In this document: positions 1,247 to 58,797 of the stretch, piece after piece
Layout: each line of letters opens with the position of its first letter
Numbering within the stretch: the stretch's first letter is position 1
Sequence record: OL780484.1
Source: Escherichia phage vB_EcoM-E33
DNA: 64,000 nt
Strand: one strand, 5' to 3'
The notes under the pieces: generated by a model
What the model saw: only the letters and a program-made list of their open reading frames with translations
Databases searched by the model: none
What the model was told of the DNA's origin: nothing
Translations under genes and position numbers: made by a program

Positions 1247-2836
1247 TTATGGTGCTGGGTTTAAAGTCACAAAATCTGACAATAGCACCCACGCATTATT
1301 AACAAGAACATATGGAAGTCCATCAGCAACTGGAGCCACTGGTGGACGTTTAGCAAGTTCAGTTTCTAATGCAGTGATTTTATCTTCTGCTGTAGTAACT
1401 CTAGAAGTTAAAGCTGCCACATTACCATCGGTAACAACTAAATCAGCTTTAACGGTCCCTATTTCAGTAGAAACGTTAGGAACTTCGGTCCACGTAGCAT
1501 TACGACGAGCATAAAGCTTACCATCGGAAGGGGCATCATTCAACTTACCTAACATCCGGGTTTCTAAAGAAGTAACCGCGTTAATAAGACCACGTTCTTC
1601 TACAGTAGTACCGTTAGGGTTTGTCCCGTCAACCTTATTGGTGAGTTTAAGTAAAGTACCCTTAATACCGGATTGGTTATTTCCAATTTCTACTTGAATA
1701 TCCTGGATAGATGAAGTAGATTGGTTTGCTTGGATAATAACGTCATTTAAACGCTTATTAATGGTCCCAGCTGCCGGAGATACTTCACTACCTAAACGGC
1801 GGTTGATATCAGTAACTTGGAAACGTAAGCCATCACTTGAACTAACACCCACTATGGTTTTAAGGTCATTTACATCAGTACGAAGACCGCTTAAACGTCC
1901 ATTAATAGAAGTAGGAGTTGATTCAGAACCTATTTGGGTTTCAATTGATGTTACACGAGGTTTTAAATCAACGTTGACTGAATTTTCTAGGGTAAGAGTT
2001 TTGCTTTCTAAAGTAGTTACTCGGTCCTTTATAGGCATACCGGAGAAATCAATATTAGTCTTAATTTCGTCGATAGATGTATTGAAATTAATTGCAGCCG
2101 TTTCTAATACAGAAATTCGGGTATAAGCCTGTTGTTTACCTACCGTATCGGAATGGGGCCCGAGTTCAGCACGAATTTCATTTAATTTAATACCTAGTTG
2201 CCCGACGTCAGAATCTTCATAATTCCTTTCAAGGGTATCAATGCGAAGACGATGGTCGACCAATTGAGTGGTATTATCAATGATGCGACGTTTCATACCG
2301 GTGGCTTCGCTGGTTTCACCAGGAGGCAACGGATTACCATTTATATCCTGGTTTTCATAATGACCTATTTCGGTTTTAAGAAGAACAATATTTTCACGTA
2401 CAGTTAAATATGGGCCATCTTGTAAAGGGTCATGGTAACCAACGTCTTCTTTTAGGTGGTCTAAATTTATGGTTAAATTGTTTAGCCCAGTAGTGGTTTC
2501 GCCTTCTACTCTCTTAAGCTCTACGATATCAACACGGTTTTTCTCAATTTGTTGGATGACGGAAATATCCGTAGCCATTTCTAAGGCATCATTGATATTA
2601 TTAACGTTTTCTACCAGTTCGTTAACTTTATCTGCGGTTTTCAAATCATTCGCATCAAGAGCTTCAACGTTTTTCTGAACTCCTAAAGCAGCAGCGTTCA
2701 AATTACCTTCATTGCCGTATTTTGTTTTTGCTGCAGACATACAATCACCCTCGCGTATCCATTGGATACGCTTTTGAGGAGCATCAGGTACGCCGTCAAC
2801 AAATGGTAACTCACTAAGTTCCAATTTGTTAATCAT
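1247..2836 (-). CDS. wac: fibritin (whisker, neck collar fibre)
   Basis: 529 aa; N-terminus LPFVDG.P, long heptad-rich middle, C-terminal foldon-like DGLPYVLVNNAWVLLSDF; position between gp12 and gp13. Confidence 0.88.
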   Translation of the reverse strand: MINKLELSELPFVDGVPDAPQKRIQWIREGDCMSAAKTKYGNEGNLNAAALGVQKNVEALDANDLKTADKVNELVENVNNINDALEMATDISVIQQIEKNRVDIVELKRVEGETTTGLNNLTINLDHLKEDVGYHDPLQDGPYLTVRENIVLLKTEIGHYENQDINGNPLPPGETSEATGMKRRIIDNTTQLVDHRLRIDTLERNYEDSDVGQLGIKLNEIRAELGPHSDTVGKQQAYTRISVLETAAINFNTSIDEIKTNIDFSGMPIKDRVTTLESKTLTLENSVNVDLKPRVTSIETQIGSESTPTSINGRLSGLRTDVNDLKTIVGVSSSDGLRFQVTDINRRLGSEVSPAAGTINKRLNDVIIQANQSTSSIQDIQVEIGNNQSGIKGTLLKLTNKVDGTNPNGTTVEERGLINAVTSLETRMLGKLNDAPSDGKLYARRNATWTEVPNVSTEIGTVKADLVVTDGNVAALTSRVTTAEDKITALETELAKRPPVAPVADGLPYVLVNNAWVLLSDFVTLNPAP

Positions 2837-2845
2837 TTTTTACCC

Positions 2846-4372
2846 TTATTCTACTTTAATAATAAAAAGAACGGACATTGTCCATGGACGTGTTTCGTTG
2901 GCAATAAGACCTTCACTATTCAATGTGGTATGTCCATCACGGTTCCAAGGATCGGTGGTCTCAAAACCTTCGTTGGTATAATAACTACGGTTATCCCAGT
3001 CAAGGCCTTTACGAGTACCAACATATCCGGAGTTAGCGGTGTTACCAAAAGCGCCATAGTTATCATGTTCACCAAAACCACCAGCATGTTTATGATAACG
3101 TAATGCTTGGGCTTGAACGGAAGATTGCGGGAAAGAACCAACACCATTACCTAAACGGGCTTTACCTTTACCGTCTTCTCCTCGGTTACCGGCAATATGC
3201 GGGTTAACTTCGCCTTCAGAATATCCACCGACCATGTTAGCGCCACGAGGATATAATCCACGGAAATCTGGAATAGCACCCCACCATCCCCAACGCCCAC
3301 CAACAGCATTTAAATATGCACCACCAGTGTAAGTCCCACCTACACAAGCACGCCATTTACCAGGTATATTACCTTCATTGCCACCCCACATGCAAATAGT
3401 ACCCACCGGAACGCTATCTGATAATTGGTCATGGGTAACAACATCAACACCATTACGACGTAATGCTCCATTAACGTTTAAAGTACCCCATATTTCGCCG
3501 CCTGAAGTAGAAATAACGTTAGCATTATAAGCCAGCGCCGTATTACCATCGCCTTGGCCTACAGTAGTAGATAAACGAACCAACCCAATACGTCCAGTAT
3601 TACCTGTACGAGCTAACAAAGAAGCCGGTGTAACTGCGGCGGTATGGTCGGTACCATTAGATACCATATCCCAACCTGCGAGTTTAATAATACCGCTTCG
3701 TTCTTCGGTGGAAGTTAATGTGGCTAATCCTGCCGGAGAAATAGCGATACCTACCGAAAGACTTCCATTACCAACCTCTGCATTGGTCGCTAAACGAACT
3801 AAACCTTCATTTGTAGTCGTTGCTGTAGAATAAACCGGTAACGCGGCCGTCGCTGCACCAATTGCCTGAGATACTTTAAGTGGGGTCATTGCTGTGGTAT
3901 CATCGGTACCAGCTAATGCGGCAGGTGTAGTTGAAATCTTGATAACGCCTGTGGCGTTCTCTGTTGATAAACGGTTCTCAAATGTATAATCCATTACCGC
4001 TTTCAAAGAGGTTGCTACGATTGCAGCCTGGGGCTCTGTGCCTGCTATGGCTTCAGCGTTAGTAGCATAACGGGTGATACCTACATAAGTTTCTGTTGCC
4101 TGAGTAGGAATATCTAAACGAGCTTTTAAAGTTGCTGGTGTCACTGCACTATAAGCATCCAGACCATCCATTACTTCTTGTGTGGTTGCAAGACGAATAA
4201 TACCTTGGGATGTTTCTGTGGCTGAAGGAACATTACCTGTGACGCCGATTAATGAAATAGTGGCCAATGCTTCTTGAACATTAGTAATATCAGGCGGGAA
4301 ATTCGACCCAGTAGGGTCGAATGATTTGAATTCCGATTTATCACTAATGTGTTTTAGTGTGTTTGTTGACAT
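2846..4372 (-). CDS. 12: short tail fibre gp12
   Basis: 508 aa; KFDPTG.NFPP.IT.VQ N-terminus and C-terminal HKHAGGFGEHDNYGAFGN...GNETRPW match T4 gp12 as recalled. Confidence 0.9.
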   Translation of the reverse strand: MSTNTLKHISDKSEFKSFDPTGSNFPPDITNVQEALATISLIGVTGNVPSATETSQGIIRLATTQEVMDGLDAYSAVTPATLKARLDIPTQATETYVGITRYATNAEAIAGTEPQAAIVATSLKAVMDYTFENRLSTENATGVIKISTTPAALAGTDDTTAMTPLKVSQAIGAATAALPVYSTATTTNEGLVRLATNAEVGNGSLSVGIAISPAGLATLTSTEERSGIIKLAGWDMVSNGTDHTAAVTPASLLARTGNTGRIGLVRLSTTVGQGDGNTALAYNANVISTSGGEIWGTLNVNGALRRNGVDVVTHDQLSDSVPVGTICMWGGNEGNIPGKWRACVGGTYTGGAYLNAVGGRWGWWGAIPDFRGLYPRGANMVGGYSEGEVNPHIAGNRGEDGKGKARLGNGVGSFPQSSVQAQALRYHKHAGGFGEHDNYGAFGNTANSGYVGTRKGLDWDNRSYYTNEGFETTDPWNRDGHTTLNSEGLIANETRPWTMSVLFIIKVE

Positions 4373-18796: not shown

Positions 18797-19620
18797 GTAT
18801 ATTTTCTTACATCAACGAGGCTACTGAAACTACAAAAGGTTCCAAGCCTACTCGTTCAGAACAACAATGGATAACTTTAGGCGTTGAATATGCCAACGCT
18901 AAGGCTAAAGGTGTTTCGGCTAAGAAATTCGCTGAAGATAAAGGCATCAAGTATTCTAGCTTTACATCTGCGATGTCTCGATACTCGAGTCGAATTAAAA
19001 CTGCTGTACAGGTTGAAAAACTTCAGAAGAAACCTGGCAATAAATTAACCAAAGCAGAACGTCAATTAATTTTGGTGAATAGTTTTAGAAAGAGTATTCG
19101 CGATAAGATTGCTAACGAAGGCGCTGCCGTAAACAATAAATCAGCTAAATGGTTTACAGAAACATTAAAGAAAGGAATTCGTGGACACCAGGTATCTAAA
19201 CCGTCTCCTGGTAAGCTTTATGCTTATATCTATGATGCCAAACATAAGGATACCCTACCATACTGGGACAAATATCCTTTAATAATTTATCTTGGGTTAG
19301 GTAAGCATAATTTAATGTACGGACTGAACTTACACTATATTCCACCTAAAGCACGTCAGCAATTTCTGGAAGAATTGCTGAAGCAATACGCGAGTACGCC
19401 TACCATTACGAACTCGACTAAATTAAAAATCGATTGGAGTAAGGTAAAAGGATTCGCTGGCGCCGACGTGATGATTAAGGCTTATATCCCTGGAAATATT
19501 AAGGGACCTTTAGTAGAGATAAAACCGTCTGATTGGGCTAATGTAATAGGATTACCACTTCAGCAATTTGTATCGAAAGGTAAGCGTTATTCAGCTCAGA
19601 AAGTTTGGAAGAAGGCATAA
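18784..19620 (+). CDS. 2: probable gp2 (DNA end protector), assigned by position
   Basis: 278 aa basic protein between gp4 and gp3, size close to T4 gp2; alternative start ATG 18793 overlaps the gp4 stop (ATGA); no motif recognised. Confidence 0.55.
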
Positions 19621-20270
19621 TGAATTACCAGAAAATATATTCTTCATTAATTACACGTGCTCAAGGACGAGCACTATCCTGTTATACCGAATCTCATCAT
19701 ATTTTACCTAGATGTATGGGTGGAGGTGATGAATCTACAAACTTAGTTGATTTAACTCCTGAAGAACATTATTTAGCACATCAACTATTAGTTAAAATGC
19801 ATCCAGGACATCCTGGTCTAACTTTTGCAGCTATGACAATGACTCAAGGCCCTCGTCGTTCTAATAAGCTTTACGGCTGGCTTAAACGTAAGCACTCTGA
19901 GAATATCACAGCAACCCAAACAGGAAAGGTTTATTATAATAATGGCAAGAAGTGTATTAAGCTGTTTCCGGGTGAACCGATTCCTGAAGGATTTGTAAAG
20001 GGACGAGGATGGAGTCCTACAAAAGGAACCACTCATGATAGGAATAATGGCCGTTTTGCCAATAAAGAACTCCAAGCGGAGCTTTCTAAACGGAGATGGG
20101 ATAAAGCCAGAAAGGAAACTTGTGAACAATTTGGTGTGGATACTATAGAAGAGGCCAAGGATATGGTTCGGGCATTTAAAGCTACATGCCACGAAAGATA
20201 CTGGATAAAACCAACTATAGCCAAATGGCCTTTTATGACACCAGTAAGACTACGTGAATTTATAAAATAA
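19620..20270 (+). CDS. HNH homing endonuclease (free-standing), copy 1
   Basis: YTESHHILPRCMGGGDESTNLVDLTPEEHYLAH is an HNH motif; start taken at ATG 19620 overlapping the gp2 stop (TAATG); ORF track start 19605. Confidence 0.8.
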   Translation: MNYQKIYSSLITRAQGRALSCYTESHHILPRCMGGGDESTNLVDLTPEEHYLAHQLLVKMHPGHPGLTFAAMTMTQGPRRSNKLYGWLKRKHSENITATQTGKVYYNNGKKCIKLFPGEPIPEGFVKGRGWSPTKGTTHDRNNGRFANKELQAELSKRRWDKARKETCEQFGVDTIEEAKDMVRAFKATCHERYWIKPTIAKWPFMTPVRLREFIK

Positions 20271-42619: not shown

Positions 42620-43078
42620 ATGATTATCAATGCAAACTCTTGGCATGTTAAACTACATGACCGTTTTTATGCCAGTTATTCACGTCCGCGCTCATTATGC
42701 GCATACTTCTGGAAAATGGTTTGGGCGTGCTTTATATGTTCTGTGCTTGCAGGTAGTACTATTTTCGGCTTAACTGTTGCAGGTGCCGGTATATTGGAGC
42801 AGTTCTTTGTATTGAGTACTCCTGTTGGTTTAAGTTTAGGTTTTATTTTAGGACTGGTTACACTAGCTCTTATTCTAGCGGTAGCCGTTGGTATTGTGTA
42901 TTGTATAATGAATTTATGGTCCTGGTATGATTTACGTAAAGAAGAAAAGGAATGGCTACTAATTAAAGCTAAACGTGAAGGAAAGGAAATTAAAGAAAAT
43001 ATCGTTATTCAATATATCAAAGCTCGTAAATCTAAGGTCTGCCCTGTAATCCACTTCGAGAACAAAACAAACCCATAA
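42620..43078 (+). CDS. integral membrane protein
   Basis: Several hydrophobic helices (FWKMVWACFICSVLAGSTIFGLTVAG, PVGLSLGFILGLVTLALILAVAVGIVYCI). Confidence 0.55.
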   Translation: MIINANSWHVKLHDRFYASYSRPRSLCAYFWKMVWACFICSVLAGSTIFGLTVAGAGILEQFFVLSTPVGLSLGFILGLVTLALILAVAVGIVYCIMNLWSWYDLRKEEKEWLLIKAKREGKEIKENIVIQYIKARKSKVCPVIHFENKTNP

Positions 43079-43842
43079 TGAATTATACCAAGCTTTATGA
43101 TAGTCTAATCCAAAGAGGTAAACTTAGAGGATTAGACAAATCCAAATTAAATTTTTATACAGAGTCCCATCATATACTCCCATCATGTATTGGTGGGAGT
43201 GATGAACCTAATAATTTAGTTCTGTTGACAGCCAGAGAACATTTTATAGCACACTGGCTTCTAGCTAGAATTCATTCTGATTCTTCTGGACTAATTTATG
43301 CTTGGTGGTCGTTTTATAGCTTCGGTGAGGATTCTCTAGGAAGAAATCTTAAACTAACTTCTAGAGGATACCAATTAGTTAGAGAAAAATTTTCAGAAAT
43401 TCATTCAAATGCGATGAAAGAAATATGGAAGACTGAAGAGTATAGAAATAAACGTTCTATAACTATGAGTCTACCGGAAATAAAAGATAAAATGTCTGCC
43501 GCTCAAATAGAAGCTCAAAACCGTCCTGAAGTTAAAGAGAAAATTTCTAAAGCTATTAAAGAAGCATTTAAACGCCCTGATGTTAGAGAAAGGCATTCTA
43601 ATGCTGTTAAGAAATCTCTAAATAATCCGGAAACTAAAAAGAGGCAATCTGATGCTTCTAAAGCAAAGCAAAGAATAGGAAAACATTGGCAAGATTATGA
43701 TTTGCTTTATTCTTTATGGGTTAAATTAAATAGGCCTAAGCGTGGGGCTTTTGGTACTTATATTAGTAAATTAGGATATCCCAAATCTAACTACCAACGT
43801 TTAATTATGCAATTTATTGAAGACTATGAAAGAGGTGAATAA
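43078..43842 (+). CDS. HNH homing endonuclease (free-standing), copy 2
   Basis: YTESHHILPSCIGGSDEPNNLVLLTAREHFIAH HNH motif; N-terminal ~60 aa paralogous to the 19620 endonuclease; C-terminal repeats NRPEVKEKISKAIK / RPDVRERHSNAVKK / NPETKKRQSDASK. Confidence 0.8.
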   Translation: MNYTKLYDSLIQRGKLRGLDKSKLNFYTESHHILPSCIGGSDEPNNLVLLTAREHFIAHWLLARIHSDSSGLIYAWWSFYSFGEDSLGRNLKLTSRGYQLVREKFSEIHSNAMKEIWKTEEYRNKRSITMSLPEIKDKMSAAQIEAQNRPEVKEKISKAIKEAFKRPDVRERHSNAVKKSLNNPETKKRQSDASKAKQRIGKHWQDYDLLYSLWVKLNRPKRGAFGTYISKLGYPKSNYQRLIMQFIEDYERGE

Positions 43843-50773: not shown

Positions 50774-50996
50774 AGAATATGTAGAGGCTGCCGATAAGGC
50801 AGTCCGCGAACTTACTTTAGCTTATTATAAAGAGCATGGTAAATTTCCGGACAGTTATTCAGTATTGAAATCTGCTTTAACTCGCTCGTATAATAATATA
50901 CTATCTGATGTGTATAATTTAAAATATGAGCACATGGAAAAATATGGAACAGAACTTGACCGTTCTGAAGCATTCAAACAAATATTAGGAATTTAA
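50760..50996 (+). CDS. hypothetical protein
   Basis: ATG 50760 overlapping the upstream gene end; ORF-track start 50646. Confidence 0.45.
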
Positions 50997-50997
50997 A

Positions 50998-51261
50998 ATG
51001 TTTAAAGTTTATGGTTATGATTCAAATATTCACCGTTGTGTTTTCTGTGATAATGCCAAACGTCTGCTTGATGTTAAGAAACAACCTTACGAATTCATTA
51101 ACGTGATGCCGGAAAAAGGCGTATTTGATGATGAGAAGATTGCTCAACTCCTGGCTGCGCTTGGTCGCGAATCTCAAATCGGTTTGACCATGCCGCAAGT
51201 ATTTGCCCCTGATGGAAGTCATATTGGTGGCTTTGACCAACTGCGAGCGTATTTCAAATGA
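50998..51261 (+). CDS. nrdC: glutaredoxin/thioredoxin (NrdC)
   Basis: 87 aa; MFKVYGYDSNIH.CV.CDNAKRLL..KKQP.EFIN.MPEKGVFDDEKIA.LL..LGR..QIGLTMPQVFAPDGSHIGGFDQLR.YFK nearly identical to T4 NrdC. Confidence 0.93.
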   Translation: MFKVYGYDSNIHRCVFCDNAKRLLDVKKQPYEFINVMPEKGVFDDEKIAQLLAALGRESQIGLTMPQVFAPDGSHIGGFDQLRAYFK

Positions 51262-51419
51262 TTGAATTAATGTTGGTTGTTTTGTATCTTATCATCGGTA
51301 TTGGTTATGCTAAGACCCTAGCTAAATTAGATGATTCAGGTGACTTTTGTTGGTGGTTGACGTCTATGATTTGTTGGCCTTTATTTCTGGTTGGTGCTTC
51401 ATTCTGGAACTTCAAATGA
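51258..51419 (+). CDS. possible 53-aa membrane peptide (not in ORF track)
   Basis: ATG overlaps the nrdC stop (ATGA); MIELMLVVLYLIIGIGYAKTLAKLDDSGDFCWWLTSMICWPLFLVGASFWNFK; its stop overlaps the next ATG. Confidence 0.4.
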   Translation: MIELMLVVLYLIIGIGYAKTLAKLDDSGDFCWWLTSMICWPLFLVGASFWNFK

Positions 51420-51724
51420 TTGAATTAAACGAACAAACCATTTTTCTAGGTGATGGTACCGAAGATGACCTGGAATATAAACTATACGAATATATGGTTT
51501 GGTTGGCTAAAGCAGAAGGTATAGACTTTGCTGTAGCCCATCCATATGGCGAGAACACTGTTGTAATCGGCGGCACCGCTTACGAAGTCCAATGGCAATA
51601 CGTTGGCCTTGAATCTGAAGAATTTGAAGAAGATGAACACGGTGATTGGCATCCAGTCGGTCCTTGGTACTGGGAACACGGTGAACCTGATTTTGAAGTA
51701 AGTAGTTGGTGGTGTGACCGTTAA
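51416..51724 (+). CDS. acidic hypothetical protein
   Basis: ATG 51416 (MIELNEQTIF...); ORF-track start 51347. Confidence 0.5.
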   Translation: MIELNEQTIFLGDGTEDDLEYKLYEYMVWLAKAEGIDFAVAHPYGENTVVIGGTAYEVQWQYVGLESEEFEEDEHGDWHPVGPWYWEHGEPDFEVSSWWCDR

Positions 51725-51779
51725 GCCATGGTATGTCGCTCGGTGGGATACGATAGAACCTACCGAGCCAGAGGAACCC

Positions 51780-51809
51780 GTTTACAACGATTCCGAAATA
51801 GAGTATAAT
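51780..51809 (+). promoter_or_regulatory. early promoter
   Basis: GTTTAC 51780-51785, 18 nt, TATAAT 51804-51809; preceded by a 10-bp stem hairpin at 51738-51768. Confidence 0.55.
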
Positions 51810-51855
51810 GAACCTTCAAACAATGATTTAATTGATATGGAATATGGGTTTTACT

Positions 51856-52032
51856 ATGAAAACTGAACTGATTTATACTGAAAAGTTAAATGGCGGTAAA
51901 GTCTGGAAACTTCTTATTAAAGGAAGTCCTACTGATCAGTTTATGGCCACTTGTGTAGGGTTATACACCCGTCCTACCAAAAAGATGATTCGTCAATTTA
52001 AACGGTTGCATCGCTCATTTTATAATGTTTAA
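51856..52032 (+). CDS. small basic hypothetical protein
   Basis: ATG 51856 (MKTELIY...); ORF-track start 51832. Confidence 0.45.
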   Translation: MKTELIYTEKLNGGKVWKLLIKGSPTDQFMATCVGLYTRPTKKMIRQFKRLHRSFYNV

Positions 52033-52070
52033 TAAATACCTATATCTAATTATTATTAAAGGTATAGGTC

Positions 52071-53144
52071 ATGCAAGATTTCGGACATTGGGCGGTATTT
52101 GAAGAAACCGATATTAAAAACCATATTGGATTTGTATACGTAATCACTTTTGAAGATGGCAAAAAATATGTGGGTGCTAAAAAGATTTGGAAACGAATTA
52201 AAGCTGCACCTTGCACATTTAAACGCGGCCCTAAAAAAGGATTTGAAGAATCTGATTGGAAAACCTATACCTCATCATCTAATGAACTAAACGCAATGAT
52301 AGAAAAGGGTATAAGTCCTAAAGAGTACCTTATTGTAGGATGGTATCCTACTTGGGGTAAAACTCTTATGGCAGAAATGGAAATGCAATTAGCCAATGAT
52401 GTTTTACGAGACCCTATGTGGCTTAACAAGCAAATTGGCGGACATTTCAACCCTAACTGCTTTGACGATTTAACCGAAGATGATATTGCAAGATGGATGG
52501 AATTTGATAAAGGGAACGAACATGTTTCCTGGCCTATGATGTACAAAATCGGTCAGAAAACCAAATATGTTAAACCTGACGAAGTTGGCAAGTATATTAA
52601 ATCTGGGTGGCAATTTGGTCGTTCTAAAACAGAAAAACATTCTGTTACCTATAATTGCTCTAAATTTACTATATGGGACTATCAAGAAAATAAAGCAGTG
52701 GAAGTTCTAAATCAAAATGAGTTTGCTCGTAATAATGATTTAAGTAGCAACCATCTAACTAGACTACTTCAAGGAACTCTCGACCTTATTAAAGATCGCT
52801 GGGGACTTCCACCAGATATTGCTCGTCAGCGTTATAAATTTCAGGACGTTTCTTCAGGAACAAAATTTTTATCTAATTCTGAGTTAGAAGAATTTTACGG
52901 TATGACTCGCGGTCAGGCTAACAAAGCCGTTAAAGATGGAAGAGCCGTTAAATTGGTAGTCGAAAGCAAAGAAGACCACATTAAAAAACTTGGCTCTATC
53001 GAATTGGTAAAAACCGAAAAGACAAAAGTTACGTCTCAAGTAATGCTTAACAGTTTTAAAGATATAGTTAATCCTATGACCACTGCCGAAAAATCAGAAA
53101 TGATTGAATGGTTGGAAAGTTATATAACTTATTTGAAATCTTAA
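52071..53144 (+). CDS. GIY-YIG homing endonuclease (Seg-like)
   Basis: N-terminal GFVYVITFEDGKKYVGAKK GIY-YIG motif; 357 aa with long C-terminal putative DNA-binding region. Confidence 0.75.
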   Translation: MQDFGHWAVFEETDIKNHIGFVYVITFEDGKKYVGAKKIWKRIKAAPCTFKRGPKKGFEESDWKTYTSSSNELNAMIEKGISPKEYLIVGWYPTWGKTLMAEMEMQLANDVLRDPMWLNKQIGGHFNPNCFDDLTEDDIARWMEFDKGNEHVSWPMMYKIGQKTKYVKPDEVGKYIKSGWQFGRSKTEKHSVTYNCSKFTIWDYQENKAVEVLNQNEFARNNDLSSNHLTRLLQGTLDLIKDRWGLPPDIARQRYKFQDVSSGTKFLSNSELEEFYGMTRGQANKAVKDGRAVKLVVESKEDHIKKLGSIELVKTEKTKVTSQVMLNSFKDIVNPMTTAEKSEMIEWLESYITYLKS

Positions 53145-53285
53145 TGAGGAAATCGCTTAAATGATTAATTTTTATGGCTACACATTTTATGCTTTAGCCG
53201 AATCTCTGAATGATGCGGTGCGTATTATGGGTGTTGAGTATCCTGCTCAATGGTTATTTGTTGTAACTAACATGTGGGTTCTTTA

Positions 53286-53501
53286 ATGAATAAATTTCGT
53301 AATGCTGTTTCTGATATCCTGGCTAATATAACATTGGTTCTGTTTATCGTATGCCTTTTAATCCTGGCTATTCCGTTTGGATTGCTGTTCATGATTATTG
53401 GTGCTCTGAGTACTGAAAAAGGTCTTGAAGGGTCCGAGTTCGACAAACGAATCCAGGCTGTTCATAGTGTTATTGCAAAAATGATGAAGGTGAAAGAATG
53501 A
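53286..53501 (+). CDS. small membrane protein
   Basis: ATG 53286 (MNKFRNAVSDILANITLVLFIVCLLILAIPFGLLFMIIGAL...); ORF-track GTG start 53274. Confidence 0.5.
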   Translation: MNKFRNAVSDILANITLVLFIVCLLILAIPFGLLFMIIGALSTEKGLEGSEFDKRIQAVHSVIAKMMKVKE

Positions 53502-53794
53502 AACGTTTTGAAGAATATGTAGCTTTGAATTGGACCGCTTGGGACAAGTTTGGTGATGATTGGTACTTCCATGACTGTGACCTGAACCCTGAATTCTTTA
53601 AAGGTAAGGAAGACGACCTCAAGGACATCTATGCTCTGTCAGAGATTCATGGTATTAAACCTACTGTCTATTTCTCTTTTGATGATACCGGGTTCCTTAT
53701 CCAGATTTACGTCCCATACGGAACTAATGAAGACGAAGTTCTAAAAACTTGGGACTACCAAGGAGTTATTTCCTGTGGACCAAAAGTTAACTAA
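53498..53794 (+). CDS. hypothetical protein
   Basis: ATGA overlap; 98 aa. Confidence 0.5.
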   Translation: MKRFEEYVALNWTAWDKFGDDWYFHDCDLNPEFFKGKEDDLKDIYALSEIHGIKPTVYFSFDDTGFLIQIYVPYGTNEDEVLKTWDYQGVISCGPKVN

Positions 53795-54092
53795 AATTGA
53801 GATTTACGGTATCCCTGAGACAGTCATGCGCTGTCCAGGGTGCATTGCTGTTCTATCGCTCCTAAATTCCCTTTCTATCCCACATACTTTCTATCCTGTG
53901 ATTAACCAGACGCCGTCAGGCGCAGTATACGACAAGCCTCTTATAGTATCATTGGCCAAACGTGCAGGCTTCAAGAGCTTAGCGATACGCTATCCTGTCA
54001 TATTTGTCGATAATAAGAAAATAGAAAATATTCCTGCCTTCAAATCGCTTTTGATTGAACTTGGTTATGACCAAGATTTAATTGAAGATTAG
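53775..54092 (+). CDS. thioredoxin-fold CxxC protein (glutaredoxin-like)
   Basis: KIEIYGIPETVMRCPGCIAV: beta-strand then CPGC as in glutaredoxins; apparent GTG start at 53775, since the first ATG would delete the strand preceding CPGC. Confidence 0.45.
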   Translation: MDQKLTKIEIYGIPETVMRCPGCIAVLSLLNSLSIPHTFYPVINQTPSGAVYDKPLIVSLAKRAGFKSLAIRYPVIFVDNKKIENIPAFKSLLIELGYDQDLIED

Positions 54093-54093
54093 T

Positions 54094-54122
54094 ATTTACT
54101 TCCTCTCCTCACGTGTTATAGT
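54094..54122 (+). promoter_or_regulatory. early promoter variant inside stem-loop
   Basis: -35 ATTTAC 54094-54099, -10 TATAGT 54117-54122; arms cctcacgtgtt / aacacatgagg, the latter overlapping SD gaggag. Confidence 0.5.
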
Positions 54123-54151
54123 CTATCCTATCAACACATGAGGAGAACATT

Positions 54152-54334
54152 ATGACTATCCAAGATAAAGAAATTAAAGCCGACCAGTATTATTTGGTAA
54201 ATGGCTACCCTGTTCAAGTAACAAAGGTAACAAATCTCGATGTATGGTATCAACCTTTGACTCACCCTGATGCTCCATTGATGGTGTGCGACCGTTCTTT
54301 ATTTTGTTCAGTAGCTAAGGAAATTAAATCATGA
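54152..54334 (+). CDS. hypothetical protein
   Basis: 60 aa. Confidence 0.45.
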   Translation: MTIQDKEIKADQYYLVNGYPVQVTKVTNLDVWYQPLTHPDAPLMVCDRSLFCSVAKEIKS

Positions 54335-54585
54335 GTCTGAAATTACATTCAATGAAAAATATCATTACCCTTAATCTGGATGATGAGCGCCTGATTTTTC
54401 TCACCGTCACTGATAAGAATATTGAAATTGCAAATGGTCCTAAGACTTATTGTTGCCCAGTGAAGAATTGGAAACATGTAACCTTTTTGACCCTGTGCGA
54501 CCGTCTGAAAGATATTAAGTTAGATTTGGATGTCAAAGATGTCCAATACATTAAAAATCTTATTGGATACAAACTGCTGAGGTAA
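54331..54585 (+). CDS. hypothetical protein
   Basis: ATGA overlap; 84 aa. Confidence 0.45.
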   Translation: MSLKLHSMKNIITLNLDDERLIFLTVTDKNIEIANGPKTYCCPVKNWKHVTFLTLCDRLKDIKLDLDVKDVQYIKNLIGYKLLR

Positions 54586-54587
54586 CT

Positions 54588-54881
54588 ATGGGTAAAACTA
54601 TTCGTCGTAAAGAATTGTCTGTAAAAGATTTTTATTATTCCGGACGTCGTAAAGCACCTGACGGCGTAAGTCAGGAACTGGTTGAAGAAAATATATTCCG
54701 TTCCGACAAGTGGAAACGTATGCGCGGTGTTGATTCTGAAGTTAAGAATGAAATGAATCGCCAACTTCGTAAAGAAGTGAGAAAGCTGAAAAAAGATGTT
54801 TACAACGACGATGAACCTGATTACAATACTTCTCATCGAGTTGCAAAACGTAAATCAAACGAATGTTATCGTTATAGCTGA
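54588..54881 (+). CDS. basic hypothetical protein
   Basis: 97 aa, Arg/Lys-rich. Confidence 0.45.
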   Translation: MGKTIRRKELSVKDFYYSGRRKAPDGVSQELVEENIFRSDKWKRMRGVDSEVKNEMNRQLRKEVRKLKKDVYNDDEPDYNTSHRVAKRKSNECYRYS

Positions 54882-54888
54882 GGAAAAT

Positions 54889-55020
54889 ATGAATATCAAA
54901 CGAATGCTTTTTAAGCAAGGACTATACACTTTAAATGTTAGTCCAAAGGGCGATACAACCACGTGGTCAGTAAATGACTGGATTAAATTCATTGATAAAC
55001 ACGGAAACTGGAAAATTTAA
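54889..55020 (+). CDS. small hypothetical protein
   Basis: ATG 54889 after SD gaggaa; 43 aa; ORF-track start 54796. Confidence 0.4.
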   Translation: MNIKRMLFKQGLYTLNVSPKGDTTTWSVNDWIKFIDKHGNWKI

Positions 55021-55221
55021 ATGAATCCTGAATCTAAATTATCACAGCGAATTGCTGAAGCTCGTCGTCAGTTCTTTGAAAATATGATAGCCCAAGGTAT
55101 TGATGACGAAGTTTTTCTGAACTGGTTTTGGAACCACAAATATTCAAGTTGTTCAGGCGCTTTATTAATTTCAGCTGCATCTATGTACGAAGGCTGGAAA
55201 GGTGCAATGAGTCAAAAATAG
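55021..55221 (+). CDS. hypothetical protein
   Basis: 66 aa. Confidence 0.45.
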   Translation: MNPESKLSQRIAEARRQFFENMIAQGIDDEVFLNWFWNHKYSSCSGALLISAASMYEGWKGAMSQK

Positions 55222-55250
55222 TTTACAAACTCTTGGGACCAGAGTATAAT
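55221..55250 (+). promoter_or_regulatory. early promoter inside stem-loop
   Basis: GTTTAC 55221-55226 (overlaps the upstream stop), 18 nt, TATAAT 55245-55250; gggacca / tggtcc repeat flanks the -10. Confidence 0.6.
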
Positions 55251-55289
55251 GGTCCTACGGATTATAACTTTAAAACTGAGGAAATTATT

Positions 55290-55619
55290 ATGTCACAAGC
55301 TATTAAAAACGTACTGAACTCTTTCGCTTTCGATAAAGTAAACGAACTGATGAAAACAGGTTTTGTAACTCCTCAGGTTCTTGACCAATGGGTTGCTGAA
55401 CTGTTACCAATCATGCACTCTAAAGACCAGAAAATTGGTAAGAACGGTATTCGTGAAATCCTGGTTCAATATATCCTTGATGAATTCGATGTCGCTGCCT
55501 TTGGTGTTGAATCCAAAGCTTGGTGCCCTGGCGAAATCACGGATAAAACTATCCGTCGTATGAAAAACCAACGTAAGAAAAAATTCGTTGACCTGAAAAT
55601 TGTTAAGGCAGCGAAATGA
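55290..55619 (+). CDS. hypothetical protein
   Basis: ATG 55290 after SD gagga; ORF-track start 55128 would include the promoter. Confidence 0.5.
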   Translation: MSQAIKNVLNSFAFDKVNELMKTGFVTPQVLDQWVAELLPIMHSKDQKIGKNGIREILVQYILDEFDVAAFGVESKAWCPGEITDKTIRRMKNQRKKKFVDLKIVKAAK

Positions 55620-55882
55620 TTAAAATAAAACTCTCTAATTACGATAAAAACTTGGAAATGATTGCTATGAAAGAAGAACTCTTGAATGATGTCCGCTTTA
55701 CCGGTTATGCAGTTCAATTTAATGGTGATGGGGCTCTCCAGATTGAGGGTGACCACTTCATCATCGAATACGAATTTAAACAGTACTGGCTTTATGCGAA
55801 GGACGAAGTTGGTGGTGTTGATTACGTCGACGAGTTCGATAACCTGGATGATGCCTTAGAAGGAGCTCGATTCCTACAATGA
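55616..55882 (+). CDS. hypothetical protein
   Basis: ATGA overlap; 88 aa. Confidence 0.45.
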   Translation: MIKIKLSNYDKNLEMIAMKEELLNDVRFTGYAVQFNGDGALQIEGDHFIIEYEFKQYWLYAKDEVGGVDYVDEFDNLDDALEGARFLQ

Positions 55883-56142
55883 AACCCATATCCACCACCC
55901 TCGCCTACGAAGGTCTCGGATTTTTCTTAATAGATAACTGTATGGATGTTGAGTTTGTTTGTGGTGAGACTTCTTTAGTATGGAAGTCTCATATTTCCAA
56001 ATACAACCATCGCGAATATCCAAGTCTTTTTAAAGAATTTTGTGGATATATGTCTGAACACGGGTGTACTGATACAATTTCTTATTCCGAGTTCACACAA
56101 ATCCTTGAAACAGTATTTCAGGCTTATTGCTTACTCCGTTGA
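55879..56142 (+). CDS. hypothetical protein
   Basis: ATGA overlap; 87 aa. Confidence 0.45.
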   Translation: MKPISTTLAYEGLGFFLIDNCMDVEFVCGETSLVWKSHISKYNHREYPSLFKEFCGYMSEHGCTDTISYSEFTQILETVFQAYCLLR

Positions 56143-56177
56143 TGCTTTAAAAGGGTCTTCAAATACTATGATATAAT
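56143..56177 (+). promoter_or_regulatory. promoter-like cassette (MotA-box-like TGCTTTA and TATAAT)
   Basis: gaTGCTTTA 56141-56149; TATAAT 56172-56177 followed by agacctatga (degenerate copy of the conserved block); no GTTTAC. Confidence 0.4.
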
Positions 56178-56208
56178 AGACCTATGATTTGAGTTATCTG
56201 AGGTAACA

Positions 56209-56766
56209 ATGACCGAAATTAAACTGACTAAAAATAACTATGTAAATAATAAGGAGCTTCTGAAAGCTATCACCCAATGGAAAACAGAACTCAGAGAAAA
56301 TACCGATCCTAATAAAATAGTTCGCCAGAACGACGTTATCGGCTTGGCTATTATGCTCATTGCTGAAGGACTAAGTAAACGTTTCAACTTCTCAGGATAT
56401 ACCCAATCTTGGAAGCAAGAAATGATTGCTGATGGAATCGAAGCTTCGATTAAAGGTCTTCACAACTTCGACGAAACAAAATACGACAACCCACATGCAT
56501 ATATCACTATGGCTTGTTTTAATGCCTTCGTTCAGCGTATCAAAAAAGAACGTAAAGAAATGGCAAAGAAATATAGCTACTTCGTCCATAATGTCTATGA
56601 CAGTAATGATGACGACATGGTAGGTATTGCAGATGAAACCTTTATCCAAGATATCTACGACAAAATGACTCAGTATGAAACCTCTTTAACTAAAGCACCA
56701 GGGTCTGATAAGAGTGCCGAACCTAAAGTTGGTGAACTGGATTTTTTATATGGAACATCAGATTAA
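56209..56766 (+). CDS. 55: late-transcription sigma factor gp55
   Basis: 185 aa; [71 protein letters not shown] match T4 gp55. Confidence 0.9.
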
Positions 56767-56980
56767 TATCACTCCACTTTTAGATGGAATGGAAGACTTC
56801 GAAGCACTCCCTTATTTTATTAAATTGATATTACGGGATGTTAAAGGTCTTCCTATTGATATTGACCCACTTAACGTCAGGAATATTGAATTCACTTCTC
56901 CTGACAATAACGTAGATTACCGTTATCATGTTGAGAACGCTAATTTCTACTTCACTATTGAATTGACTCCAAAGGATTAA
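56750..56980 (+). CDS. hypothetical protein
   Basis: ATG 56750 overlapping the gp55 end; ORF-track start 56714. Confidence 0.4.
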
Positions 56981-56981
56981 T

Positions 56982-57293
56982 ATGCAAAGCCATGACATTT
57001 CTCAATTGACTGATGAGCAAATTGAAGAAGCCCAGCAACGTTTAGAAGAGCACAATATTAAAGAAGCTAATTCTCAAGCGGCTAAGATTCTTAAGAAGAA
57101 TGCTCGTGAAATCCGTCGTTTAAATCTCCATGCCCAAGGCGCTGTACTTGAAAACAACTTTGAAGCATATAAGTACGCTTTAATTAAATTACGTGGTATT
57201 TACCGTCAACCTGTTACTGATGAACTTGTTCAATTGATGTGGGAATCTACCCGCAAACAAATTTGGGAAATCGTCAATGGCCCTAGTAAATAA
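56982..57293 (+). CDS. hypothetical protein
   Basis: 103 aa. Confidence 0.45.
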   Translation: MQSHDISQLTDEQIEEAQQRLEEHNIKEANSQAAKILKKNAREIRRLNLHAQGAVLENNFEAYKYALIKLRGIYRQPVTDELVQLMWESTRKQIWEIVNGPSK

Positions 57294-57477
57294 ACCCTTT
57301 AAACGGCTTCTTATTGGAGCCGCCTTTAGACTTCGCTCATACGGTAATATCTGTATTAAGCAGTCCGAAACCGAATATAAAATGGTCGGCCAGTATTCCG
57401 ATGGAATTTTTCGGATTGAGCCTGTAGCCAAGGTTTGGGTAGATTCTCATCAACTTAAGAAATGGTGGCAACGATGA
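57277..57477 (+). CDS. hypothetical protein
   Basis: 66 aa. Confidence 0.4.
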   Translation: MALVNKPFKRLLIGAAFRLRSYGNICIKQSETEYKMVGQYSDGIFRIEPVAKVWVDSHQLKKWWQR

Positions 57478-57536
57478 TAACGTGGACAGGCGGCTAATGA
57501 AAGACGAATACGAAAAAGTTTAAGAGGTTGTATGAA

Positions 57537-57710
57537 TGACGAATTCGATGGATTTTGATAAGATTAAATCTGACAAAAATGAGATGATACTTCAATTTGA
57601 AGCCGCTCGTATTAAAGCAGAAAATGAAGGTACTATTACCTATAAGCCTATCAAGTTCAGGTCTAATCACGAACCTCTGTACGGTGTATTAGTTGGTAAA
57701 GGAGCTTAGG
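57537..57710 (+). CDS. possible 57-aa protein (not in ORF track)
   Basis: SD aagagg then ATG 57537 (MTNSMDFDKIKSDKNEMILQFEAARIK...); stop codon tag lies inside the terminator stem. Confidence 0.35.
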
Positions 57711-57720
57711 CTCCTTTTTT
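57701..57720 (+). terminator. rho-independent terminator
   Basis: ggagc-ttag-gctcc hairpin followed by tttttt. Confidence 0.7.
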
Positions 57721-57774
57721 GCTTTCTGAATGGATGATAAAATAAATCTATGAAATACATTATAAAGGTAGATT

Positions 57775-58797
57775 ATGAAAATTTTGAATATAGGTGATTT
57801 GCATATCGGAGTAAAAGCCGATGACCCTTGGATTCAGGAAATCCAGCTTAACGGTATTAAACAGGCTGTAGAATATTCTAAAGCAAACAATATTGATACA
57901 TGGATTCAATATGGTGATTGGTTCGATGTACGCAAGGCTATCACCCATAAATGTATGGAATTTAATCGTGGTCTGGTGGAAATTATCAGCGATGCAGGTA
58001 TTAAAGTCCATGTTATAATTGGTAACCATGATGCAACGTTTAAAAATAGCATAACTCCTAATGCGGTTTCTGAACTTCTTACTCAGTATGAAAATTTTAC
58101 TGTTTACGAGAAACCTACTACGGTTAATTTTGATGGCACCGAAATTGATTTGATTCCATGGATGTGTGAAGAAAACACGACCGATATCATGGACCATATC
58201 AAAAATACTACAGCAGATTTCTGCATTGGCCACTGGGAATTAAATGGTTTCTATTTCTATAAAGGAATGAAATCACATGGTTTAGAACCTGATTTCCTTA
58301 AGAAGTATAAGCAAGTATGGTCTGGTCACTTCCACACCATTTCTGATGCAGCAAACGTCAAGTATATTGGTACGCCATGGACCCTGACTGCAGGTGATGA
58401 GAACGACCCTCGTGGCTTCTGGATTTTCGATACAGAAACCCATAAAATGGATTTCATCATCAATGAAACTTGTTGGCACCGTAAGATTCATTATCCAAAC
58501 GCGACTATCGATTACAAAGATTTTACAAATATCGCAGTTCGTGTTATAGTCGATAAAATTGATGACGGTCTTACTAAGTTCGAATCAGAGCTTGAAAAGG
58601 TTGTCCACTCTTTACGTATCGTGTCTAAGGTAGATAACAGTGTTGATATCGATGATTCTGAAGAGGAAGATGAAGTTAAGTCCCTCTTGGATATAATGTA
58701 TGATTATATCGATGCCCTTCCTGATGGCCACACTGAAGACGATGTTAAAGCCCTTAAGACTATGGCCGCACAACTTTATAATGAGGTTACACGATGA
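57775..58797 (+). CDS. 47: recombination endonuclease subunit gp47 (Mre11/SbcD-like)
   Basis: 340 aa; LNIGDLHIG, GDWFD, IIGNHD, GHWE, SGHFH phosphoesterase motifs; T4 gp47 size. Confidence 0.9.
   Translation: MKILNIGDLHIGVKADDPWIQEIQLNGIKQAVEYSKANNIDTWIQYGDWFDVRKAITHKCMEFNRGLVEIISDAGIKVHVIIGNHDATFKNSITPNAVSELLTQYENFTVYEKPTTVNFDGTEIDLIPWMCEENTTDIMDHIKNTTADFCIGHWELNGFYFYKGMKSHGLEPDFLKKYKQVWSGHFHTISDAANVKYIGTPWTLTAGDENDPRGFWIFDTETHKMDFIINETCWHRKIHYPNATIDYKDFTNIAVRVIVDKIDDGLTKFESELEKVVHSLRIVSKVDNSVDIDDSEEEDEVKSLLDIMYDYIDALPDGHTEDDVKALKTMAAQLYNEVTR

Follow-up and report, generated by a model that had tools for sequence, protein, structure and literature searches.

Escherichia phage vB_EcoM-E33 (sequence record OL780484.1) carries, between nrdC and gene 47, a 357-codon gene for a GIY-YIG nuclease in the slot of gene 49, the gene for endonuclease VII. 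The analysis covered a stretch of 64,000 nucleotides (nt) of this genome, hereafter the window, in which the nrdC-to-47 interval (51262-57770) holds 22 plus-strand genes: 20 of 41-109 codons, gene 55 and the GIY-YIG gene. The interval is the Dhakavirus (JS98/Bp7/WG01-type) form of the T4 nrdC-to-47 region, with the same small-gene backbone in the same order. A megablast search with 50900-58000 matched 820 phage records, the best being the Dhakavirus phages Bp7, PSD9, ABTNLS3, WG01, JS98 and IME08 at 91-99% identity, and the closest phage record over 25 kb was ABTNLS3, with 84% coverage at 95% identity. The original prediction, a reading of the sequence made without database searches, had listed the GIY-YIG endonuclease as one incidental item in an interval from which gene 49 and other large T4 genes were simply missing.

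A GIY-YIG nuclease gene in the gene-49 slot

The features of the slot are listed below; the chimeric proteins P0023-P0025 are described in the following section.

52031..52038, plus strand: AATAAATA, a T4-late-promoter-like motif read from the sequence, overlapping the start of the hairpin 5' arm
52038..52069, plus strand: RNA hairpin with the Shine-Dalgarno sequence of the GIY-YIG gene in its 3' arm (minimum free energy -10.3 kcal/mol, z -1.5)
52071..53144, plus strand: gene for the 357-amino-acid (aa) GIY-YIG nuclease, in the gene-49 slot (Pfam SegE_GIY-YIG 1e-33; phrog_7363 over its full length)
52098..52436, plus strand: GIY-YIG catalytic domain, residues 10-122 (SegE_GIY-YIG, PF19835)
52443..53102, plus strand: non-catalytic region (residues 125-344), similar to the modular DNA-binding part of homing endonucleases
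53103..53141, plus strand: last 13 codons, IEWLESYITYLKS, from gene 49 codons 86-98 (tblastn; alignment of T4, WG01 and P0023-P0025)
53145..53164, plus strand: residual 3'-terminal 20 nt of gene 49, TGAGGAAATCGCTTAAATGA, matching the end of WG01 gene 49 exactly and running into the start of the next open reading frame (ORF)

Gene 49 is carried in this interval by JS98, WG01, IME08 and many more Dhakaviruses. Relative to WG01, the flanks are 98.6% identical over 50900-52053 and 99.2% identical over 53145-57746, with window positions 52054-53144 having no WG01 counterpart and WG01 positions 2664-3131 (locus L002) being missing from the window. The lost WG01 segment corresponds to gene 49 (2678-3151) minus its final 20 nt, and the inserted segment to the GIY-YIG ORF (52071-53144) with a leader of 17 nt. 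The 357-codon GIY-YIG nuclease gene has taken the place of gene 49 in an ORF-for-ORF swap. The view that gene 49 is simply missing, and the nuclease incidental, is therefore not upheld, given that JS98, WG01 and IME08 retain gene 49 here and the GIY-YIG gene lies exactly in its place. The setting is also that of the endonuclease VII gene, downstream of nrdC, 49.3 and 49.1 and preceded by a ribosome-binding-site hairpin and a late-promoter-like motif.

Judging from its sequence, AATAAATA may function as a late promoter. A motif of this type also precedes gene 49 in T4 and WG01, and the exact TATAAATA precedes the homologue in S16. Equivalent hairpins are found before gene 49 in T4 (z -3.5) and WG01 (z -3.1), and before the GIY-YIG genes of phiR1-RT (z -4.5), S16, PSD2001 and locus L015, their stems differing among phages yet still pairing through compensating changes. 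The combined hairpin and late-promoter design has been described for T4 late genes, with Barth et al. 1988 on gene 49 among the references, and for homing endonuclease genes (PMC2988022). The hairpin was considered as evidence of an endonuclease VII-like function and set aside, as T4 homing endonuclease genes share the device.

The encoded protein matches the SegE-like profile PF19835 over residues 10-122 with 116.7 bits against a cut-off of 25, and has a GIY-YIG fold matching those of I-TevI, UvrC and EndoII. Residues Y23, Y33, E102 and N119 are invariant in 39 homologues, and their putative catalytic roles were assigned by motif order rather than by superposition. An AF2 model of the 357-aa protein had a pLDDT of 82. 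Its DNA-binding region is I-HmuI/I-TevI-like, giving the protein the layout of a homing-type nuclease with an extended modular region. No Pfam match to the zinc-binding nuclease domain of endonuclease VII (PF02945) was observed in the protein, for which tblastn with gp49 recovered only the 13-residue C-terminal helix, and the dimerisation domain (PF09124) was absent from it even at E values up to 1.

Descent, constraint and transfer of the GIY-YIG gene

The sole similarity to gp49 within the window lies in those 13 residues at the end of the GIY-YIG ORF, where IEWLESYITYLKS aligns with gp49 residues 86-98, LEWLENLLTYLKS, and the DNA at this helix also agrees (GAATGGTTGGAAAGTTATATAACTTATTTGAAATCT in the window, GAATGGTTAGAAAATTTACTTACTTATTTAAAATCC in T4). 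A search of 5.8 billion proteins yielded 44 clusters of the GIY-YIG family. The metagenomic relatives P0023 (427 aa), P0024 (432 aa) and P0025 (499 aa) are in-frame fusions that continue through the complete endonuclease VII dimerisation domain, scoring 45-59 bits against PF09124 (Endonuc-dimeris; cut-off 22), with two copies of the domain in P0025, and they are encoded beside nrdC and nrdD on T4-like contigs. Since these chimeras bridge the helix to the rest of gp49 and the DNA matches as well, chance was ruled out as an explanation of the 13-residue match, which taken alone has an E value of only 0.2-0.45. In a crude neighbour-joining tree without support values, the chimeras branch below all of the 357-aa forms.

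Among the 357-aa forms there are two distinct deletion joints. In S16 and RB16, the reading frame continues from the residues YLK into the three or four terminal codons of gene 49, whereas the window, phiR1-RT and PSD2001 have a stop after YLK and beyond it GGAAATCGCTTAAATG, an out-of-frame reading of the gene 49 end. The GIY-YIG gene is shown by these comparisons to be a physically remodelled gene 49, in which codons 1-85, encoding the zinc-binding nuclease, gave way to the GIY-YIG catalytic domain and the DNA-binding region of homing-endonuclease type, and codons 86-98 were kept as a C-terminal helix. The physical history is well supported: the nuclease half was replaced in frame, the dimerisation domain was subsequently lost, and the gene has moved between phages.

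Some family members depart from this arrangement. Short forms of 269-326 aa (L019 7001-7810, L020 7001-7873 and L017 3501-4481) are without the gene-49-derived helix, and two short members sit in the nrdC-to-47 region of distant T4-like contigs. In KVP40-like Vibrio phages the family copy is located elsewhere, on the strand opposite to its neighbours. The gene for P0025 (L014 6001-7500) has a 4-nt overlap with the start of nrdD, and the nrdD downstream of it is split by an I-HmuI-like ORF.

Comparison of the window gene with that of LQ5 gave a synonymous divergence (dS) of 0.35 and a non-synonymous divergence (dN) of 0.012, for a dN/dS of 0.035 that was low in every domain, and comparison with other genera gave dN/dS values of 0.11-0.14. 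These ratios show strong purifying selection over the whole length of the gene. The ORF is intact in the window, 04086, ABTNLS3, PSD9, LQ5 and FB, and in every listed homologue checked apart from that of Bp7, which in the RefSeq record (L001 3138-4075) is split into 271 and 35 codons by three 1-nt deletions that restore the frame. With at least two of the three located in A-runs, these deletions look like sequencing errors of the 2012 record, and probably are; decay of the Bp7 copy was accordingly considered and judged unlikely. The possibility that the ORF is in general a decaying pseudogene or an assembly artefact could draw on the split Bp7 ORF and on the vB_EcoM_005 copy, which is 33 codons shorter, but is effectively refuted by the dN/dS of 0.035, the intact copies in six phages and the frame-restoring nature of the Bp7 deletions.

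A tblastn search found full-length homologues, 53-100% identical, in 85 phage records spanning several hosts and genera. Carriers include seven Dhakavirus phages, the S16 group (Gelderlandvirus), phiR1-RT and TG1 (Tegunavirus), PSD2001 (Gaprivervirus) and RB16 (Pseudotevenvirus), along with more Klebsiella and Cronobacter phages, the Acinetobacter phage Ac42, and Aeromonas and Vibrio phages. The gene order is nrdC, GIY-YIG, nrdD in RB16, and 49.2, 49.1, small ORFs, GIY-YIG, nrdD, nrdG, nrdH in S16, where the stop of the GIY-YIG gene and the start of nrdD overlap by 4 nt, as do those of gene 49 and nrdD in T4; in phiR1-RT the GIY-YIG gene follows pin. All S16-type (Gelderlandvirus-like) records among the matches listed carry the GIY-YIG gene.

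Co-occurrence with gene 49 was assessed with a single tblastn query, the GIY-YIG protein concatenated with WG01 gp49, run on 50,697 phage records, of which 1566 were matched in 1570 places. Among the matches listed, the GIY-YIG gene was the sole full match in 45 of 45 carriers and there were no instances of a carrier with an intact gene 49; PSD2001 was the one carrier with any gp49 match, to a gene-49 stump of 46 codons. Records bearing gp47 and records bearing either of the two genes numbered 640 and 610 for Escherichia, 80 and 79 for Aeromonas, and 73 and 69 for Acinetobacter, respectively. The comparison is a rough one, since phages that match neither gene, cyanophages among them, can also bear gp47 homologues, but it suggests that almost every T4-like phage of enterobacteria, Aeromonas and Acinetobacter carries one of the two.

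Within Dhakavirus the distribution is sporadic, with seven phages carrying the GIY-YIG gene as against many with gene 49. In PSD2001 (L013 3561-3776), downstream of the GIY-YIG gene lie 84 nt of 3' flank of the Dhakavirus type (94% identical), comprising the end of gene 49 and the start of the next ORF, then approximately codons 113-157 of the phage's own gene 49, and then nrdD. This junction is the scar of a cassette transfer between genera. The scar and the sporadic distribution together suggest that the cassette also moves between co-infecting phages.

Function of the GIY-YIG protein

A substitution of this kind has been proposed before, in that an "alternative nuclease" of RB16 (RB16ORF270c) and of Aeromonas phage 65 (65ORF061w) was suggested to stand in for endonuclease VII (Petrov et al. 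2010, PMC2993671). RB16ORF270c probably corresponds to the gene with the GenBank name RB16p243, and as RB16 carries the GIY-YIG family in the slot and has no gp49 match, the idea of substitution is already on record. For the alternative nuclease the 2010 paper cites Petrov et al. 2006 (J Mol Biol 361:46). The RB16p243 product is 57% identical to the window protein over the full 357 aa, its gene occupies the gene-49 slot between nrdC and nrdD, and it likewise ends in a gene-49-derived helix, ILWLEQYISYLK. The window differs from RB16 in the absence of nrdD and in having the out-of-frame type of 3' junction, shared with phiR1-RT and PSD2001, rather than the in-frame type of RB16 and S16. Further, the swap in the window is seen against a 99%-identical relative bearing gene 49, so that its boundaries, unlike those in RB16, can be read to the base. 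The window gene is in this respect a further member of a known but uncharacterised kind, although descriptions of the base-precise swap, the gene-49-derived C-terminus and the dimerisation-domain chimeras were not found in the literature that could be searched.

Resemblances extend both to endonuclease VII and to homing endonucleases. With T4 endonuclease VII (gp49; PF02945 and PF09124) the window gene shares the slot, the upstream hairpin, the late-promoter design, and homology of the 13 C-terminal residues and the 20 nt downstream, and related chimeras keep the dimerisation domain; the window protein differs in having neither the zinc-binding nuclease domain nor the dimerisation domain, and its catalysis would use a GIY-YIG site, of another fold and chemistry. 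With T4 SegA to SegG and I-TevI it shares a SegE-type domain, a modular DNA-binding tail, late-promoter and hairpin control, a patchy distribution and a transfer scar. Unlike the T4 Seg genes, the window gene replaces a gene rather than lying between genes, encodes 357 aa compared with 221 aa for T4 SegA, is under strong purifying selection, is present in all listed S16-type records, and among the matches listed is never found with an intact gene 49. SLX1 and At-HIGLE are eukaryotic GIY-YIG Holliday-junction nucleases (PMC9071465), which show that a GIY-YIG domain can be a structure-selective junction nuclease, the activity proposed here for the window protein.

The reading preferred here, to which we assign a probability of roughly 0.58, is that the GIY-YIG gene functionally replaces endonuclease VII while keeping its mobility. 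The protein would be made late, under control of the late-promoter-like AATAAATA and of a hairpin hiding the ribosome-binding site on longer early transcripts, as reported for T4 gene 49. It would then do the job of endonuclease VII, cutting branched replication and recombination intermediates and letting packaging proceed. Spread of the cassette would likely occur by homing-type double-strand-break repair, converting the gene 49 alleles of co-infecting phages. A fuller scenario, offered only tentatively, is that a homing-type GIY-YIG enzyme entered gene 49 in frame, first borrowing its dimerisation domain, and then became the late debranching and packaging nuclease in several T4-like genera, domesticated yet still converting gene 49 alleles.

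The competing explanation is that of a purely selfish Seg-type homing endonuclease, which destroyed gene 49, cleaves the alleles of co-infecting phages and spreads by gene conversion, with debranching before packaging being dispensable or else performed by another enzyme, for example the terminase nuclease, RuvC of the host or a phage protein not yet recognised. This would account for the SegE-type GIY-YIG domain with its I-HmuI/I-TevI-like DNA-binding region, the patchy occurrence among otherwise 99%-identical relatives, the inter-genus transfer with 84 nt of donor flank in PSD2001, a mode of regulation typical of T4 homing endonuclease genes, and the homing endonuclease label in RefSeq. It is harder to reconcile with the reported essentiality of gp49 in T4 (PMC2993671), where it is described as a portal-bound resolvase freeing stalled branched DNA (PMC9958956), given that ordinary laboratory isolates of several genera are without an intact gene 49. 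Nor would a purely selfish element be expected to show a dN/dS of 0.035 across all domains, a presence in all S16-type records among the matches listed, or an identity of ~57% to RB16-type members, which is comparable to the 61-70% seen for gp43, gp46 and gp47 between T4 and LQ5. Three diverged chimeras with an intact in-frame dimerisation domain would also be unexpected for dead remnants, and short members of the family, too, keep to the nrdC-to-47 region in T4-like contigs that are very distant. The purely selfish explanation is considered the less likely of the two, and takeover is favoured by the reported essential role of gp49, the carriers without intact gene 49, the strong constraint, the S16-type records and the chimeras.

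Several points nonetheless weigh against takeover. The tail of the protein resembles that of a homing endonuclease, the sporadic distribution among Dhakaviruses is as expected for a selfish element, and the hairpin and late-promoter design does not discriminate between the explanations, being used by T4 homing endonuclease genes as well. The GIY-YIG gene physically overwrites gene 49, so that their failure to co-occur is partly automatic and is by itself no proof of functional substitution. The dimerisation domain was lost in the 357-aa forms, apparently twice, and monomeric action has been reported for GIY-YIG homing enzymes such as I-TevI. A Bp7 copy that was genuinely disrupted would speak against an essential function. 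There was no NCBIfam model for the protein and no solved relative in a search of Protein Data Bank (PDB) sequences with the family profile, and in the literature no biochemical or genetic study of any member of this GIY-YIG family was found, nor a characterised phage GIY-YIG resolvase, nor likewise any work on phiR1-RT and endonuclease VII.

Endonuclease VII, a textbook example of a junction-resolving enzyme, is regarded as nearly core in T4-type phages, and the RefSeq label "homing endonuclease" hides its absence from the genomes bearing the GIY-YIG gene. Phages of the window type and WG01 form a natural near-isogenic pair, with either the GIY-YIG gene or gene 49, and as such a clean natural experiment bearing on whether a GIY-YIG nuclease can debranch DNA and whether a mobile nuclease can displace an essential gene by taking its function. 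If the takeover reading is true, a domesticated selfish nuclease displacing an essential resolvase would be the phage counterpart of SLX1.

Remaining gene content of the nrdC-to-47 interval and DNA modification

The anchor genes nrdC (50998-51261) and 47 (57775-58797) are separated by 6.5 kb in the window compared with 11.7 kb in T4. In T4 (NC_000866) the order is nrdC, 49.3, 49.2, 49.1, pin, 49, nrdD (with the I-TevII intron), mobC and nrdG, followed by 55.8, nrdH, 55.6 to 55.1, 55, a-gt.5 to a-gt.2, mobB, a-gt, 47.1 and 47, in agreement with the original prediction. The large genes which that prediction reported as missing are indeed so: apart from the helix described above, T4 and WG01 gp49, nrdD, nrdG, a-gt and b-gt had no tblastn or tblastx match, even as diverged copies elsewhere, in the whole 64-kb window or in the complete genome of the relative LQ5. 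The interval is also without the T4 mobile genes mobB and mobC and the I-TevII intron, and between a-gt.2 and 47 there is no 47.1, a-gt or mobB. The anchors and the remaining genes are as follows, with percentages denoting identity.

50998..51261, plus strand: nrdC thioredoxin, left anchor (87% to T4 NrdC; Pfam Glutaredoxin)
51258..51419, plus strand: 53-aa ORF with no T4 counterpart (phrog_6756 over its full length; in WG01 and Bp7)
51416..51724, plus strand: 49.3 orthologue (79% to T4 49.3 over 102 aa)
51714..51866, plus strand: 49.1 orthologue (66% to T4 49.1; phrog_2382)
51844..52032, plus strand: 62-aa ORF, phrog_3272 (faint similarity to the T4 Pin C-terminus; tblastn, residues 144-160, E 0.003)
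53161..53286, plus strand: 41-aa ORF (phrog_3350; present in WG01)
53274..53501, plus strand: 55.8 orthologue, membrane protein (41% to T4 55.8; phrog_1930)
53498..53794, plus strand: 98-aa ORF like RB69 orf082c, no T4 counterpart (JS98 annotation; no Pfam or NCBIfam match)
53775..54092, plus strand: nrdH glutaredoxin, the CPGC protein (60% to T4 NrdH residues 2-102)
54152..54334, plus strand: 55.6 orthologue (56% to T4 55.6)
54331..54585, plus strand: 84-aa ORF like RB69 ORF079c (phrog_4968; JS98 annotation)
54588..54881, plus strand: 55.5 orthologue, DUF5499 (75% to T4 55.5; Pfam 4e-46)
54889..55020, plus strand: 55.4 orthologue (88% to T4 55.4)
55021..55221, plus strand: 55.3 orthologue (74% to T4 55.3)
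55290..55619, plus strand: 55.2 orthologue, DUF7570 (65% to T4 55.2; Pfam)
55616..55882, plus strand: 55.1 orthologue (48% to T4 55.1)
55879..56142, plus strand: 87-aa DUF7200 ORF like RB69 orf072c (Pfam 8e-33)
56209..56766, plus strand: gene 55, late sigma factor, 185 aa (79% to T4 gp55 over 185 aa)
56750..56980, plus strand: a-gt.5 orthologue (41% to T4 a-gt.5)
56982..57293, plus strand: a-gt.4 orthologue, DUF2654 (Pfam; T4 match)
57277..57477, plus strand: a-gt.3 orthologue (46% to T4 a-gt.3)
57536..57709, plus strand: a-gt.2 orthologue (57% to T4 a-gt.2)
57775..58797, plus strand: gene 47, right anchor (70% to T4 gp47; 99.7% to Bp7, PSD9 and LQ5)

The original prediction was accurate in its count of about 20 ORFs of 40-110 codons and in noting a CPGC thioredoxin-fold protein, which is NrdH, but not in describing gp55 as the only recognisable T4 product, as 49.3, 49.1, 55.8, nrdH, 55.6-55.1 and a-gt.5-a-gt.2 also match their T4 namesakes at 40-88% identity with the T4 order kept. 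Only five small ORFs have no T4 counterpart (51258-51419, 53161-53286, 53498-53794, 54331-54585 and 55879-56142); these belong to known phage families of unknown function or are RB69-like according to the JS98 annotation, and no NCBIfam model matched the orphan small ORFs. With most small ORFs being T4 orthologues in T4 order, the interval is the T4 backbone minus large and mobile genes, without novel filling. Across JS98, Bp7, WG01 and the window there is variation in the Pin-like ORF and two further ORFs, in 49.1 and 47.1, and in the presence of gene 49 or the GIY-YIG gene. The interval is in this sense a plastic region, with content varying among close relatives between fixed flanking core genes and the remainder collinear with T4. 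To see a novel hyperplastic filling in it is an overstatement, most of the small ORFs being conserved T4 genes.

The absence of a-gt had also been taken to point to a different DNA-modification status. Genes 42 and 56 are represented by homologues in JS98-type phages, which are documented to lack any glucosyltransferase (Petrov et al. 2010, PMC2993671), and the missing a-gt is a published genus-wide trait rather than a special property of the window. The gene-42 slot of LQ5 (L009 1301-1741) holds only a 25%-identical thymidylate-synthase homologue, and the imm-uvsX interval of ABTNLS3 (L018 8858-13569), where T4 holds 42 and b-gt, contains an annotated phosphoheptose isomerase gene among unnamed ORFs. 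RB69 makes arabinosylated 5-hydroxycytosine by means of such a homologue, and the same modification has been predicted for Dhakaviruses (Lee et al. 2026, PMC13326640), a pathway which the contents of these two intervals fit. The modification genes of the lineage lie between imm and uvsX, past the right end of the window and outside the nrdC-to-47 interval, and within 51262-57770 no resemblance to a modification enzyme was found using Pfam, PHROG and NCBIfam. The prediction of a different modification is right, but this was already known, and the responsible genes lie elsewhere.

Taken as a whole, the view of the interval as a hyperplastic region of mostly novel small ORFs, reflecting a different modification status at this site, could appeal to the genes that come and go among Dhakaviruses (the Pin-like ORF, two more ORFs, 49.1 and 47.1), to the five ORFs without T4 counterparts and to the lack of a-gt and b-gt. 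It is rendered very improbable by the majority of T4 orthologues in T4 order, the location of the modification genes between imm and uvsX, and the absence of any modification-enzyme-like product. The earlier finding is correct but ordinary, as it describes traits already known for the lineage, namely the lack of a-gt, nrdD and nrdG and the abundance of small ORFs, and adds nothing new.

The window is a mosaic of WG01-like and Bp7-like sequence with its joint at 57746-57775. Left of ~57746 it shares 99% identity with WG01, whereas on the right gp47 is 99.7% identical to the Bp7, PSD9 and LQ5 proteins and DNA identity to WG01 is no more than 73%. The joint lacks the 47.1 ORF present in T4, JS98 and WG01. 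The start of NrdH is probably the GTG at 53775, giving 105 aa, because the alignment with T4 NrdH begins at 53784; the 88-aa RefSeq calls in Bp7 and WG01, which start with MRCPGC, appear to lose the first beta strand. Elsewhere in the window, two plus-strand ORFs (19620-19916 and 43078-43536) resemble the N-terminal HNH part of T4 MobB and MobC, with 48% and 40% identity to MobB, respectively, and are likely free-standing HNH homing endonucleases.

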